Source: Escherichia coli
GTDB lineage: Bacteria; Pseudomonadota; Gammaproteobacteria; Enterobacterales; Enterobacteriaceae
Reading direction: 5' to 3' (one strand)
Assembly (NCBI RefSeq): GCF_044324875.1
Contig: NZ_CP172185.1
DNA length: 64,000 nt
Within the stretch, counting starts at the first letter, position 1. Every line of letters begins with the position of its first letter. Positions 27,954 through 60,254 of the stretch are shown piece after piece. Made by a program: the position numbers and the translations under genes. The notes under the pieces were generated by a model. The model was given only the letters and a program-made list of their open reading frames with translations. It was not told the origin of the DNA and searched no databases.

Positions 27954-28030
<77 letters not shown>

Positions 28031-29336: not shown

Positions 29337-29411
29337 TGTGATATTCTGTATGCCGTTTTTACGTATACGACAGGGTGAGGGATAACCTCGCCCTTTTTAT
29401 TCTGAGGTGCT

Positions 29412-32351: not shown

Positions 32352-32558
32352 TAAAAAAAAGCACCGCAATTAGGCGGTGCTACATTAATCACTATGGACA
32401 GACAGGGTAAATGTACAGGAAGTGAAAAAAGGTAGCTTTGCTACCATGGTCTGAATCGCAGACCAATTGCAAACACAACAACACAACATCACAACCGTAA
32501 GCCAAAAGTTCACCAGAACACGCATTCCGATAAAACTTTTCGTTCCGGCTCAGGAAGT
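32352..32558 (-). ncRNA. gcvB: GcvB small regulatory RNA (Hfq-dependent, amino-acid transporter regulon)
   Basis: Reverse complement begins ACTTCCTGAGCCGGAACGAAAAGTTTTATCGG.., contains the GU-rich region GTTGTGATGTTGTGTTGTTGTGTTTGCAATTGG and ends in terminator GCACCGCCTAATTGCGGTGCTTTTTTTT; divergent from gcvA. Confidence 0.85.
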
Positions 32559-50777: not shown

Positions 50778-51143
50778 GTCGACAGGGAGTCAGACAACGA
50801 AGTGAACATCAGGATGATGACACTTCTGAAGGACACACCAGGATGGTGTTTCAGGGAAAGGCTTCTGGATGAAGCGAAGAGGATGACGCAGGACGCGTTA
50901 AAGGACACCTCCAGGATGGAGAATGAGAACCGGTCAGGATGATTCGGTGGGTCAGGAAGGCCAGGGACACTTCAGGATGAAGTATCACATCGGGGTGGTG
51001 TGAGCAGGAAGCAATAGTTCAGGATGAACGATTGGCCGCAAGGCCAGAGGAAAAGTTGTCAAGGATGAGCAGGGAGCAACAAAAGTAGCTGGAATGCTGC
51101 GAAACGAACCGGGAGCACTGTGAATACAGTGCTCCCTTTTTTT
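50778..51143 (+). ncRNA. csrB: CsrB small RNA (CsrA-sequestering, multiple GGA motifs)
   Basis: About 366 nt with roughly 15-18 repeats of CAGGA(U/A/C)G-like motifs (catCAGGATGatg, acCAGGATGgtg, tCAGGATGatt, ttCAGGATGaag, ttCAGGATGaac, cAAGGATGag ...) and terminal hairpin gggagcactgtgaatacagtgctccc + T7; boundaries approximate. Confidence 0.85.
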
Positions 51144-51188
51144 ATTCCTGCTATTCTTCGCGGCAGTTTTTCTTATTGAGGTTGCTTT

Positions 51189-55916: not shown

Positions 55917-57257
55917 ATGAGTTCTCAATTTACGACGCCTGTTGTTACTGAAATGCAGGTCATCCCGGTGGCGGGCCATGACAGTATGCTGATGAATCTG
56001 AGTGGTGCACACGCACCGTTCTTCACGCGTAATATTGTGATTATCAAAGATAATTCTGGTCACACCGGGGTAGGGGAAATTCCCGGCGGCGAGAAAATCC
56101 GTAAAACGCTGGAAGATGCGATTCCGCTAGTGGTGGGTAAAACGCTGGGTGAATACAAAAACGTTCTGACGCTGGTGCGTAATACATTTGCCGATCGTGA
56201 TGCCGGCGGGCGCGGTTTGCAGACATTTGATTTGCGGACCACTATTCATGTGGTTACCGGGATAGAAGCGGCAATGCTGGATCTGCTGGGGCAACATCTG
56301 GGGGTTAACGTGGCATCGCTGCTGGGCGATGGTCAACAGCGTAGCGAAGTCGAAATGCTCGGTTATCTGTTCTTCGTCGGTAATCGCAAAGCCACACCGC
56401 TGCCGTATCAAAGCCAGCCGGATGATAAATGTGACTGGTATCGCCTGCGTCACGAAGAAGCGATGACGCCGGATGCGGTGGTGCGCCTGGCGGAAGCGGC
56501 ATATGAAAAATATGGCTTCAACGATTTCAAACTGAAGGGCGGTGTACTGGCCGGGGAAGAAGAAGCAGAATCTATTGTGGCACTGGCGCAACGCTTCCCA
56601 CAGGCGCGTATTACCCTCGATCCTAACGGTGCCTGGTCGCTGAACGAAGCGATTAAAATTGGTAAATACCTGAAAGGTTCGCTGGCTTATGCAGAAGATC
56701 CGTGTGGTGCGGAGCAAGGTTTCTCCGGGCGTGAAGTGATGGCAGAGTTCCGTCGCGCGACTGGCCTGCCGACCGCAACCAATATGATCGCCACCGACTG
56801 GCGGCAGATGGGCCATACGCTCTCGTTACAATCCGTTGATATCCCGCTGGCGGATCCGCATTTCTGGACGATGCAAGGTTCGGTACGTGTGGCGCAAATG
56901 TGCCATGAATTTGGCCTGACCTGGGGTTCGCACTCTAACAACCACTTCGATATTTCCCTGGCGATGTTTACCCATGTAGCCGCTGCTGCACCGGGTAAAA
57001 TTACTGCTATTGATACGCACTGGATCTGGCAGGAAGGCAATCAGCGTCTGACCAAAGAACCGTTTGAGATCAAAGGCGGGCTGGTACAGGTGCCGCAAAA
57101 ACCAGGATTGGGCGTAGAAATCGATATGGATCAGGTGATGAAAGCCCACGAGCTGTATCAGAAACATGGGCTTGGTGCGCGAGACGATGCGATGGGAATG
57201 CAGTATCTGATTCCTGGCTGGACGTTTGATAACAAGCGCCCGTGCATGGTGCGTTAA
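55917..57257 (+). CDS. gudD: D-glucarate dehydratase
   Basis: Start at ATG 55917 ([20 protein letters not shown]..), 446 aa; ORF track is 5'-extended. Confidence 0.93.
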
Positions 57258-57331
57258 GACAGAAAACCAAAACCGGCTTCATAAGAAGTCGGTTTGAGAT
57301 TACTGACGAAGTGGTTTACGGGGCCGGTTTT

Positions 57332-57433
57332 CCCCCTCGCCCTTTCAGGGAGAGGGGCGGGGTGAGGGTAATCATTCGCACTTGCGTTGGCCTGTTCCCC
57401 TCACCCTAACCCTCTCCCCGGAGGGGCGAGGGG
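57332..57433. repeat. large imperfect palindrome (about 37-bp G/C-rich arms, about 28-nt spacer) between convergent gudD and barA
   Basis: Left arm ccccctcgccctttcagggagaggggcggggtgaggg vs right arm cccctcaccctaaccctctccccggaggggcgagggg are near reverse complements. Confidence 0.55.
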
Positions 57434-57497
57434 ACTGTCTGTGCTGCTCCCAGCATTGGCATTGGACGGAACCTATTTTGACTCGACAAGACGTCCA

Positions 57498-60254
57498 TTA
57501 CCCGAGAATTTTGCTGGCTTCGCGCGCGACATTATCCATCTCGTCCAACAGTTCCAGCAGCTCCGGCTCCAAATCTTCTTCTTTAGTACCGCTACGTAGC
57601 TGTTGTTCGATCAGCTGGCAGAGATTCTTCATACGCGGCACACCGCTATAGCCGCAACTGCCATGCAGTTTATGAATCAAATCAACCAGGCCTTCCGGGT
57701 TTTCTCCAACCAGCTGTTCCTCAACTTTGTTGCGAACTTCAGGCAGGAAATCGAGTAACATTTGCAGCATATCGCGCGCTAAATCGGTTTTTCCTGCTGC
57801 CTGGCGTAGTGCCAGTTGCCAGTCGAGGGTCGCATTCGGGTTCACCACAATTTCGTTGACTTCGGGCGTCACGACGCGAGACGAAATACCGCTGCCAGGC
57901 TTGTAGCGCAACAACAAATTATGCAATCGCTCTTCTTCAATCGGTTTCGCCAGATAATCGCTCATCCCTGCGCCAAGCAGCTTCTCTTTTTGCCCGGCCA
58001 TTGCATGCGCCGTTACCGCGATAACTGGCGTTTGTTGCTGATGGGGGAGCTGGTGGATGAGTTCGCAGGCCCGAATGCCGTCCATGTCCGGCATTTGAAT
58101 ATCCATTAAGATCAAATCGAACGGCATCTGTTTCGCCCGTTCAACCGCCTGATGCCCGCTATCGCAAAGTTCCACATGTTGCACCATATCTTCCAGCAAT
58201 GCGCCGATAAGTTTCAGGTTAGCGGGGTTGTCATCAACCGCCATGACTGTCATTGCCAGCTTACTTTCATCGGTTACAGGCAAAAGCGTGTTTTGTTTGT
58301 GATGACAAAATTCCGTCAGGGCAGGTAACAGGCGCGTAGGTGTTAATGGTTTCAGCAGACACGCGCCGATACCATCTTGCTTAAGTTTTTCAGCATTGAC
58401 TTGTGCATGGCAAGGAAGTGCCAGCATCAGGAAATCGGTCATCGATACCGCTTTCGCTAATCGCTCATGTTGCATTGTTAGCGGCTCGCGGAAGGTCACC
58501 GCAATGCCTAATAACATCATGTCGTAATGCGCGGGAGGCAGCGCGGAGAACGTTGGGCTATAAACCACTTCCAGCGGCGTTTCACTTAAAATATCCAGCG
58601 TGCATTGCGCTGCTGCGGAGTTTGGTTCGACATAGGCCAGGCGCTTGCCGGCGAGGCACTGGGTGGATGGCCCTTCGATAATAATGTTCGGGTTCAGATC
58701 GAGATTAATGTGGAACCAGAAAGTTGAACCGCGATTCGGCTGGCTATGGAACGAAATATCGCCGCCCATTTCATTAACCAGTTTTTGTGTAATCACCAGC
58801 CCCAGCCCGGTGCCACCATGACGGCGGGAAATACTGGCATCAGCCTGTCGGAAGGCCTGGAATAAGCGCGATTGATCGCGTTCAGGAATACCAATGCCGG
58901 TATCCCGAATCTGCACTTCAATCTGCACTTTAGTATTACTCAGCGCACGTTTTTCTACCAGAATATCAATGTTGCCATTCTCGGTGAATTTAATTGCATT
59001 CCCTACCAGGTTAGTGATGATTTGCTGTAATCGCAGTGGGTCGCCAATTACGTTATCGGGCACGTCGCTCTTAATATTGAGCGTCAGTTCCAGCCCTTTA
59101 TCGTGAGAAGAATGTGCCAGCAGGGTAACGACTTCATCCAGCGTGCTGCGTAGTGGGAATGGAATACTTTCCAGAATCAGCTTACCTGCTTCCAGTTTCG
59201 AGAAGTCGAGAACATCATTAATAATTGCCAGCAAATTATTTGCCGAACGTTCAATCGTATTCAGGTGATCGCGCTGCGTTGGTGTTAATTCTGTTTTCAG
59301 CGTCAGGCGGGTAAAGCCAATAACACCATTCAGTGGTGTACGCAGCTCGTGTGACATATTTGCCAAAAACTCGGATTTAATACGCGCCGCTTCCTGGGCG
59401 CGCTTTTTCGCCAGATCCAACTCAACGTTCTGAATTTCCATCTGCTCCAGCGTTTCACGCAGATCGGACGTCGCCTGGTCGATATTGTGCTGCATCTCTT
59501 CGTGATAAGCAGCCAGCGACATTGCCATCGAGTTGATACCGTTTTTCAGCATATCCAGCTCGCCGAGCATAAATCCTTCCACCCGGCTGTCGAGTTGCCC
59601 GCGACGGATGCGGTCGACGGTATTCACCATGTTGCGAATCGGACCGGTTACATCGCGCATTAAGCGCCAGCCAAAAATAAGCGCAATACCGATACAAAAC
59701 AGCATCATCACGCTGGAAATAAAGATCTCTTTATATTGCTGCAAGCGAACCGATTTAAGATCCAGCTCCAGCGCAATATATCCCAGCATATTTTGACTAT
59801 TTTTGGCATCGCTACTGGGCGATTCGTCGGGGGAGTAACTCTCAGAAATAATCGGCGTGCGGAGGATCATAATATCGCCGTCACGAGTGACAGTGAGCTG
59901 GCGAGGAAACGGCACGTTGCTGCCGAGCTGCATTGATGAAGGATCAAGATGAAAATTGGAGGTGACAAAGAGTCGGTTATTTTCATCATAAACCGAAATC
60001 GCGCGAACAATATCGGAATGGCGACGATGCAGTACGCTTATTAACTGACCGATAGATTCGCGATTTTGCAGGCTCATGCCATATTCAGTAGAAACTGCAA
60101 GCGGCTCAATAATGCTGGCTCCGGCATCTTCCAGTTGACGCTGCAAGTCGTTATAGCGATGCACAACGAAAAAGATACTCAGCAATAAACCAATAAGGAC
60201 GGTCGGTGCCAGGATCAGAATCATCATGCGTGCGCGCAGGCTGTAGTTGGTCAT
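57498..60254 (-). CDS. barA: hybrid sensor histidine kinase BarA (HAMP-HisKA-HATPase-REC-HPt)
   Basis: 918-aa ORF with H-box ([12 protein letters not shown]), receiver and HPt regions. Confidence 0.95.

Follow-up and report, generated by a model that had tools for sequence, protein, structure and literature searches.

BoxC was first described as a repeat downstream of the gene envM/fabI (Bergler et al., 1992; see also Bachellier et al., 1999). The same elements were later renamed PIT elements (Hoyne et al., 2000; Hoyne and Maher, 2002), TMECO (Holder et al., 2015, PMC4666352) and HPGQ motifs, which comprise HPG1 and HPG2 (Kaplan et al., 2016, PMC5100583). A BoxC unit has a length of about 34–37 nt and is composed of the block CCCTC(T/G)CCC, a short loop, the block GGG(A/T)GAGGG, a 3-nt loop and the block GGGTGAGGG. 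The units are typed by the 3-nt loop, which is TTA in type A and CCG-like in type B. In E. coli K-12, 23 units are known, and they include five inverted pairs, each of which joins a type-A (TTA) with a type-B (CCG) unit (PMC4666352). TMECO are always intergenic and are linked neither to a gene class nor to a certain distance from genes. Their loci are hypervariable among strains, far more so than control intergenic regions (PMC4666352). BoxC-type motifs have been published for more than 260 genomes. According to the literature, the G-rich strand on its own adopts either an intrastrand purine-motif triplex or a G-quadruplex in vitro. As cited in PMC4666352, PIT motifs showed neither promoter nor terminator activity and had no effect on RNA polymerase (Hoyne and Maher, 2002). 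BoxC is dispersed, non-coding repeat DNA, and in the thirty years since its discovery neither a function nor a mechanism of copying has been established for it.

Two further groups of repeats are comparable to BoxC. In Enterobacter sp. 638, repeats of the form CCCTCTCCCXX(X)GGGAGAGGG, which are often duplicated at the 3′ ends of genes, were described as two-block hairpins and presumed to be terminators, without an experimental test (Taghavi et al., 2010, PMC2869309). REPs located between convergent genes were reported to act as terminators and as blocks to mRNA decay (bioRxiv 10.64898/2026.03.23.713779).

The window, i.e., the whole stretch of 64,000 nucleotides of E. coli DNA analyzed here (NZ_CP172185.1), contains an imperfect palindrome between the genes gudD and barA, for which an initial annotation had given a size of about 100 bp. 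It was found at 57333–57433, and the convergent orientation of the two genes agrees with the RefSeq annotation of identical loci. The element is intergenic, as it lies between the stop codons of gudD (57257) and barA (57498). In the repeat search, two arms of 39 nt each (57333–57371 and 57395–57433) were detected, which are 82% complementary and 23 nt apart. When the arms are defined by the BoxC motif, they measure 36 nt and enclose a spacer of 27 nt (Table 1), close to the approximately 37 and 28 nt initially given. The blocks named there were likewise located, GGGAGAGGG at 57348 and GGGTGAGGG at 57360, with their complements at 57398 and 57410.

Table 1. Features of the gudD-barA intergenic region, with positions counted from the first nucleotide of the window.
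Feature	Position	Strand	Sequence, composition or basis
gudD stop codon	57255..57257	+	End of the open reading frame at 57257; annotation in identical genomes
Candidate bidirectional terminator, outside the repeat	57260..57298		A-tract (57260–57272), hairpin (57273–57292), TTTGAGA
Allele-specific cassette, about 180 bp	57300..57479		Alignment of BoxC against BIME alleles
Whole family-homologous unit	57328..57445	+	TTTTC, arm B, spacer, arm A (reverse complement), GACTGTCTG
BoxC arm B (type-B-like)	57334..57369	+	CCCTCGCCC (57334–57342), loop TTTCA, GGGAGAGGG (57348–57356), GCG (57357–57359), GGGTGAGGG (57360–57368), T; complete sequence CCCTCGCCCTTTCAGGGAGAGGGGCGGGGTGAGGGT; 35/36 identical to TMECO no. 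10
Spacer, 27 nt, tip of the long hairpin	57370..57396		AATCATTCGCACTTGCGTTGGCCTGTT
BoxC arm A (type A 'mm')	57397..57432	-	CCCTCGCCCCTCCGGGGAGAGGGTTAGGGTGAGGGG; 36/36 identical to TMECO no. 23
barA stop codon	57498..57500	-	Open reading frame 57498–60254 (-); annotation of identical loci

The motif GGGWGAGGG occurs five times in the window compared to 0.57 expected occurrences, and none of 100 shuffled sequences contained it five times. Folding of both strands, which had been proposed as a check, gave −83.1 kcal/mol for the RNA of the plus strand (z = −6.8) and −72.2 kcal/mol for that of the minus strand (z = −5.4). With DNA parameters, values of −35.0 and −35.7 kcal/mol were obtained (z = −5.6 and −5.8), and in each of the four folds none of 200 shuffled sequences reached the native value. 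Based on the block counts and on the folds, the palindrome is therefore a real feature beyond chance. As stated initially, it is far larger than a normal terminator and a long hairpin can form in either transcript.

To identify the element, its arms were compared with the K-12 TMECO copies in Table 1 of Holder et al. (PMC4666352), in which no. 10 is the copy between ygfF and gcvP. Both arms have the complete layout of a BoxC unit, matching published sequences at 35 and 36 of 36 positions. The suggestion that the palindrome belongs to an intergenic repeat family proved to be right: due to these matches and to the common spacer and flanks, it is identified as a full-length paired ('palindromic') BoxC element (PIT/TMECO/HPGQ). 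As BoxC pairs form an already published family, the palindrome is no new element. The family, its paired form, the rule that a type-A unit is joined with a type-B unit, the intergenic hypervariability and the lack of terminator activity are all known already. The locus shares with the published copies the three-block motif, the inverted pairing of both types, and the spacer and flanks of four K-12 pairs, as well as the intergenic position, the multiple copies and the variability of the locus among strains. The pairing rule is also followed here, since arm A has a TTA loop and arm B carries GCG in the window and CCG in five sister haplotypes. Two differences were found. The second loop of arm B is GCG in the lineage of the window, whereas CCG is canonical, and the slot between gudD and barA lacks BoxC in about 96% of the E. 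coli genomes, among them K-12. Of the 62 loci catalogued in 56 strains by Holder et al., no entry for gudD or barA was found in the part of the supplement text that was accessible. Taken as a whole, the element is probably a passenger BoxC pair residing in a tolerant 3′ intergenic slot between convergent genes.

Compared to REPs, BIMEs and REPINs, BoxC is also a short G/C-rich extragenic palindrome with a preference for 3′ intergenic positions, of which a doublet including its spacer is repeated. Like a REPIN, the pair forms an inverted doublet hairpin, and the whole unit including the spacer can be aligned across five loci. However, BoxC has no similarity to the REP consensus (GCCGGATG... / GCCTGATG...), and every BoxC arm has a third G-block which is missing from REPs. 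Accordingly, examination of the window allele revealed no REP consensus (GCCGGATG.. / GCCTGATG.., with a GTAG-type head). With the repeats of Enterobacter sp. 638, BoxC has the hairpin core of C-block and G-block in common (PMC2869309). No Rfam family reached its gathering threshold at the locus. At E-values up to 10, only sub-threshold hairpins of eukaryotic miRNA precursors were returned, the best one with 37 bits against a threshold of 77.5 bits.

Further genomic copies, whose absence had been named initially as evidence against a repeat family, are abundant. The 118-nt unit (57328–57445) matched 70,161 places, spread over 5,407 of the 5,426 complete E. coli genomes, and a genome has between 1 and 27 such places (median 15). 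Strain CFSAN061763, which agrees with the window at 100% over the tested region of 271 bp, has 11 of them. A match extending over 80% or more of the unit was obtained in 4,288 genomes. Furthermore, the number of BoxC places beyond the gudD flank is 2–3 in the strains Nissle 1917 and 83972 versus 17–18 in K-12-type strains.

The blastn matches at other loci span 57323–57444 of the window. The element can be aligned with four K-12 pairs that are arranged alike, located at hrpB-mrcB, fepB-entC, ygfF-gcvP and alx-sstT. The left flank TTTTC and the right flank GACTG...GAGC are common to the window and these four pairs. The spacer consensus TAAT.ATTCGCACC.GTGCTGGCCTGTTC is also present at ygfF-gcvP, fepB-entC and alx-sstT, and the spacer is shortened at hrpB-mrcB. 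Beyond the unit, a weaker tail (..TTTGTCAT-like), reaching to about 57470, is common to the window and the four pairs as well. The fifth K-12 pair, at lldD-trmL, is arranged the other way round, so that its arms face outward. The repeated unit is the whole pair including its spacer and short flanks. The closest copy at another locus is the one at ygfF-gcvP, and as it is only about 89–90% identical, there is no sign of recent copying.

At the gudD-barA locus itself, the BoxC cassette was found in 174–188 genomes (about 3%), and a BIME cassette of almost equal length with two REPs occupies the slot in 5,209–5,219 genomes (about 96%), among them K-12, O157, Nissle and strain 2779. In 138 genomes the region 57258–57500 is identical to that of the window, and in 36 others it is 92–95% identical. 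The strain names of the 138 genomes suggest a lineage which we take to be the OXA-48/244-associated ST38. In the alignment of both alleles, homology stops near 57299 and restarts near 57480. Neither a target-site duplication nor a clean empty site was found in this comparison, and a weak similarity of the two junctions to each other is not convincing. The element does not correspond to a MITE, which would have terminal inverted repeats, a target-site duplication and a clean empty site in other strains, as strains without the element hold another cassette of similar length and no convincing direct repeat flanks it. The polymorphism is a cassette replacement, which fits the published variability of TMECO loci, far above that of control intergenic regions.

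BarA is a sensor kinase that acts upstream of the Csr system. The slot lies in the 3′ region of barA and offers a natural contrast, with the same flanks enclosing either a BIME or a BoxC pair. It is suited to asking whether such repeats affect mRNA 3′ ends, mRNA stability or the local mutation rate.

The initial annotation had also considered the palindrome as a possible bidirectional terminator of gudD and barA. It shares with bidirectional intrinsic terminators the position between convergent genes and a G/C-rich hairpin that is stable in both transcripts, and the repeats CCCTCTCCC..GGGAGAGGG of Enterobacter sp. 638 were presumed to have a role in termination (PMC2869309). However, a T-run following the BoxC hairpin is absent on both strands, as the sequence continues with ...GGGGACTGTCTGTGC on the plus strand and with ...GGGGGAAAACCGGCCC on the minus strand. 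The pair is thus a G/C-rich stem-loop without the directly adjoining U-tract of an intrinsic terminator. A promoter and terminator scan of 57000–57800 gave no sites, the published experiments on PIT elements detected no terminator activity, and the element is missing at this locus in about 96% of the strains. In addition, a separate conserved hairpin with both an A-tract and a U-tract is located only 40 nt away. Therefore, the proposed function was not borne out, and that the BoxC pair serves as the intrinsic terminator of both genes is considered extremely unlikely.

The separate hairpin is formed by CCGGCTTC (57273–57280), the loop ATAA and GAAGTCGG (57285–57292), and on the minus strand it is followed by UUUUGGUUUU. 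Its predicted folding energy is −17.3 kcal/mol on the plus and −15.3 kcal/mol on the minus strand. It is kept in every aligned BoxC-type and BIME-type allele, and between haplotypes a compensatory change from C-G to T-A as well as a change from U·G to C-G were observed. In the lineage of the window, one G-C pair has become G·U on the plus strand and A·C on the minus strand. The consensus scan of the window allele did not call this hairpin, probably due to the A·C mismatch on the minus strand. Whereas the BoxC pair lacks flanking A- and U-tracts, the segment 57260–57298 has both, so that its hairpin is the likelier candidate for a bidirectional terminator common to gudD and barA. For annotation purposes, the element should be labeled as BoxC (PIT/TMECO) pair, and the hairpin at 57273–57292 should be treated as the likely common terminator.

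Under this assumption, transcription of both gudD and barA would end at the small conserved hairpin. If barA transcription ends there, the 3′ UTR of barA would extend over 57300–57497. This 3′ UTR would then include the BoxC pair (in other strains, the BIME), which transcripts of gudD would reach only upon read-through.

Such a position raises the question of a role on the RNA level. A hairpin at the end of barA may block 3′-to-5′ exonucleases or attenuate read-through, with BoxC and BIME being interchangeable, and by analogy to REPs it is possible that the barA mRNA is protected from 3′ exonucleases in this way. Consistent with this, the RNA hairpin is highly stable on both strands, it sits between the barA stop codon and the candidate terminator, and the alternative allele in the same slot is a BIME of almost equal length. 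REPs were reported as dual 3′ UTR elements with terminator and stabilizer function, and those between convergent genes correlate with a higher expression of both genes (bioRxiv 10.64898/2026.03.23.713779). As REPs between convergent genes are reported to act as terminators and decay blocks, the presence of two different structured repeats in one slot could point to selection for some structure there. However, terminal REPs have no global link to longer mRNA half-lives (bioRxiv 10.64898/2026.03.23.713779). Furthermore, in experimental tests BoxC/PIT motifs neither acted as terminators nor affected RNA polymerase, and the K-12 pairs occur in all contexts, including the divergent promoter region of fepB-entC. 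Most haplotypes of the gudD-barA copy also carry stem-breaking changes which are not compensated. A function as 3′ UTR element is therefore seen as a doubtful possibility, which is compatible with the passenger reading and does not exclude it.

The haplotype variation was analyzed by aligning the window with five other haplotypes, giving six sequences in total. In all five others, the second block of arm B is the degenerate AGGAGAGGA and the loop is the canonical CCG, whereas the lineage of the window has the intact block GGGAGAGGG with the loop GCG. Strain EC556 shows a T-to-G change in block 3, and strain AST215 carries a 6-bp duplication of ACCCTA in arm A. Regarding covariation, three pairs of the long hairpin are broken and none is compensated, which with six haplotypes is a weak test. 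The G/T variants in the outer helix match at three of the five paired loci and mismatch at two, a split that carries no information. The variation hence gives no support for selection on the long hairpin, a weak statement given only six sequences. The stem-breaking variants correspond to the class which Holder et al. named 'TMECO mutated' (PMC4666352). The three differences lie close together, within 10 nt of a cassette that is nearly identical elsewhere, and this clustering could have been caused by short-tract gene conversion from another BoxC copy.

The duplication in AST215 (locus L132, about 175–195, corresponding to 57398–57412 of the window) creates CCCTCACCCTAACCCTAACCC, a short run of CCCTAA/TTAGGG. 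Similar block expansions (GGGTGAGGGTGAGGGTGAGGG) are present in the loci L055 and L124. These expansions look like slippage within the G-blocks.

Another interpretation is that of a DNA-structure switch between duplex, cruciform, triplex and G-quadruplex, having a regulatory or replication-pausing role. The G-run stretch 57348–57368 of arm B fits a G-quadruplex pattern, and arm A has such a pattern on the minus strand, so that both strands are covered. Block composition and G-runs of the element are compatible with the formation of triplexes or G-quadruplexes. For BoxC oligonucleotides, published CD and NMR measurements in vitro revealed a triplex and a switch between hairpin and G-quadruplex. 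The motifs also block DNA polymerase in vitro (PMC4666352). However, DMS footprinting in vivo gave no indication of a triplex, and according to the literature the DNA remains duplex when it is double-stranded. Functional studies found no effects in vivo, and there is no link to gene class or gene distance (PMC4666352). A switch with such a role is thus very unlikely.

For the passenger pair, the following behavior is proposed. When single-stranded, either as RNA or as replication template, the element would fold into the long hairpin, and each G-rich arm may alternatively adopt a triplex or G-quadruplex, as suggested by the published in vitro work. The main consequence would be local instability, i.e., slippage, small indels, clustered substitutions and cassette replacement.

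To survey the paired architecture beyond E. coli, one genome per species was scanned with the exact pattern of the inner blocks of a pair, excluding the outer C-block. The scan returned at least 120 loci, with 123 pairs among the matches listed. The listed matches belong to Alpha-, Beta- and Gammaproteobacteria, Myxococcota, Methylomirabilota and the candidate division FCPU426, and the Gammaproteobacteria among them include Enterobacter, Superficieibacter and Serratia oryzae. On each side, 81–83% of the 123 listed pairs also carry the outer C-block, which the pattern had not required. Their spacers have lengths of 15–45 nt and are lineage-specific, and loop 2 is identical on both arms in just 4 of the 123 pairs. 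The breadth of the paired architecture would be a modest extension of the published range of the motif. The conservation of exact 9-mer blocks across phyla is hard to reconcile with purely neutral DNA.

Individual genomes show their own variants of the family. In BBSC-SA01 (Gammaproteobacteria bacterium; L083–L087), the outer C-block is missing, and the inner blocks make up perfect palindromes whose TTA/TAA loops are complementary. These palindromes are bordered by TTTTGAGTGC...GCACTAAAA within flanking DNA that is A+T-rich elsewhere, and they represent a simpler hairpin variant. Serratia oryzae (L091–L105) has at least 15 paired copies in one genome with their own spacer and extended flanks, e.g., AGTTAAGGCTAACCAGTT. 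At least 10 paired copies with their own conserved spacer and flanks were identified in a Xanthobacteraceae MAG (L115–L124), where another palindromic repeat (GGGCGTTCACGCCC...) directly adjoins the pairs, so that a BIME-like mosaic results.

These data bear on the question of whether BoxC pairs are mobile. According to this explanation, the inverted doublet with its spacer is a REPIN- or MITE-like unit which is copied by an enzyme acting in trans, and the gudD-barA copy is an old insertion. In agreement with this, the whole unit of about 120 nt including spacer and short flanks is repeated between loci, the copy number in E. coli ranges from 1 to 27 per genome, and doublets with non-identical arm loops occur in many copies per genome and across phyla among the matches listed (identical in only 4 of 123). 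However, the gudD-barA locus shows a cassette replacement and neither target-site duplication nor clean empty site, and the identity of about 89–90% to the nearest paralogue does not indicate recent copying. When 1,412 ORFs within 2.5 kb of the 123 elements in the 120 loci were clustered, no recurrent transposase-like neighbor was found. The recurrent neighbors are members of large superfamilies such as ABC ATPases, short-chain dehydrogenases and solute-binding proteins, and the genes between two nearby elements are housekeeping genes and the like, e.g., holB, tmk and a two-component system. REPINs are inverted REP doublets that RAYT transposases mobilize. A cognate RAYT-type gene was detected here neither within 2.5 kb of the 123 elements nor between neighboring ones.

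Mobile replicons do not support the mobile unit either. The element is essentially absent from phages, with three partial matches in 50,697 records. Most matches in the plasmid collection fall into very large records (0.1 to 4.9 Mb) with the appearance of megaplasmids, chromids or chromosomal DNA. A mobile unit of this kind is consequently rated as improbable. In the genomes of the Campylobacter phages A18a and A11a (MG065686.1 and MG065691.1), two 41-nt matches each were found that are 97.6% identical to arm A, which was unexpected.

A related assumption is that the repeat family spans phyla and replicates as the inverted doublet rather than as the single unit. It is based on the observation that the three 9-mers and the rule of non-identical loops recur from Enterobacteria to Myxococcota and Methylomirabilota, with spacers and flanks being lineage-specific. 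This assumption is regarded as unlikely to hold. If true, it would imply either a widely conserved trans-acting function or a copying process based on DNA structure which recognizes the blocks, and the BIME and BoxC alleles at gudD-barA would provide a natural test bed for it.

Besides the palindrome, the initial annotation had described a weaker echo of the BoxC blocks in the terminator of mltA. The sequence exists at 29373–29399 (GGGTGAGG-GATAA-CCTCGCCC-TTTTT), but its similarity to BoxC is at chance level. A decayed BoxC was rejected for this site, since only words of 9–11 nt are in common (blastn-short, E = 1.7–27). The site is an ordinary intrinsic terminator with a stem of 8 bp and a T5 run. 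The terminator region is conserved in 5,423 genomes, and no BoxC was seen at this site in the strains sampled.

The intergenic region mltA-tcdA shows a polymorphism of its own. K-12-type strains carry a 163-bp BIME with two REPs there (L131, E. coli JM83, 170–375), whereas the window has a single hairpin. The BIME of the JM83 type is flanked by a direct duplication of the hairpin of about 20 bp (AGGGTGAGGG(G/A)TAACCTC(A/G)C). It could have been inserted with a target duplication, or the form in the window could be the result of a deletion between the repeats. Adjacent to mltA, the window has one tRNA-Met (CAT) gene at 27954–28030 (-). In K-12, this position is presumably occupied by three tandem initiator tRNA genes (metZWV).

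Finally, two full-length sRNA genes were found in the window, namely gcvB at 32353–32558 (-) with 199 bits and csrB at 50787–51146 (+) with 382.9 bits. The sRNA CsrB is a regulatory target of the BarA-UvrY system. The window thus contains csrB together with barA, whose product belongs to the system controlling CsrB and which bears the BoxC repeat in its 3′ region.
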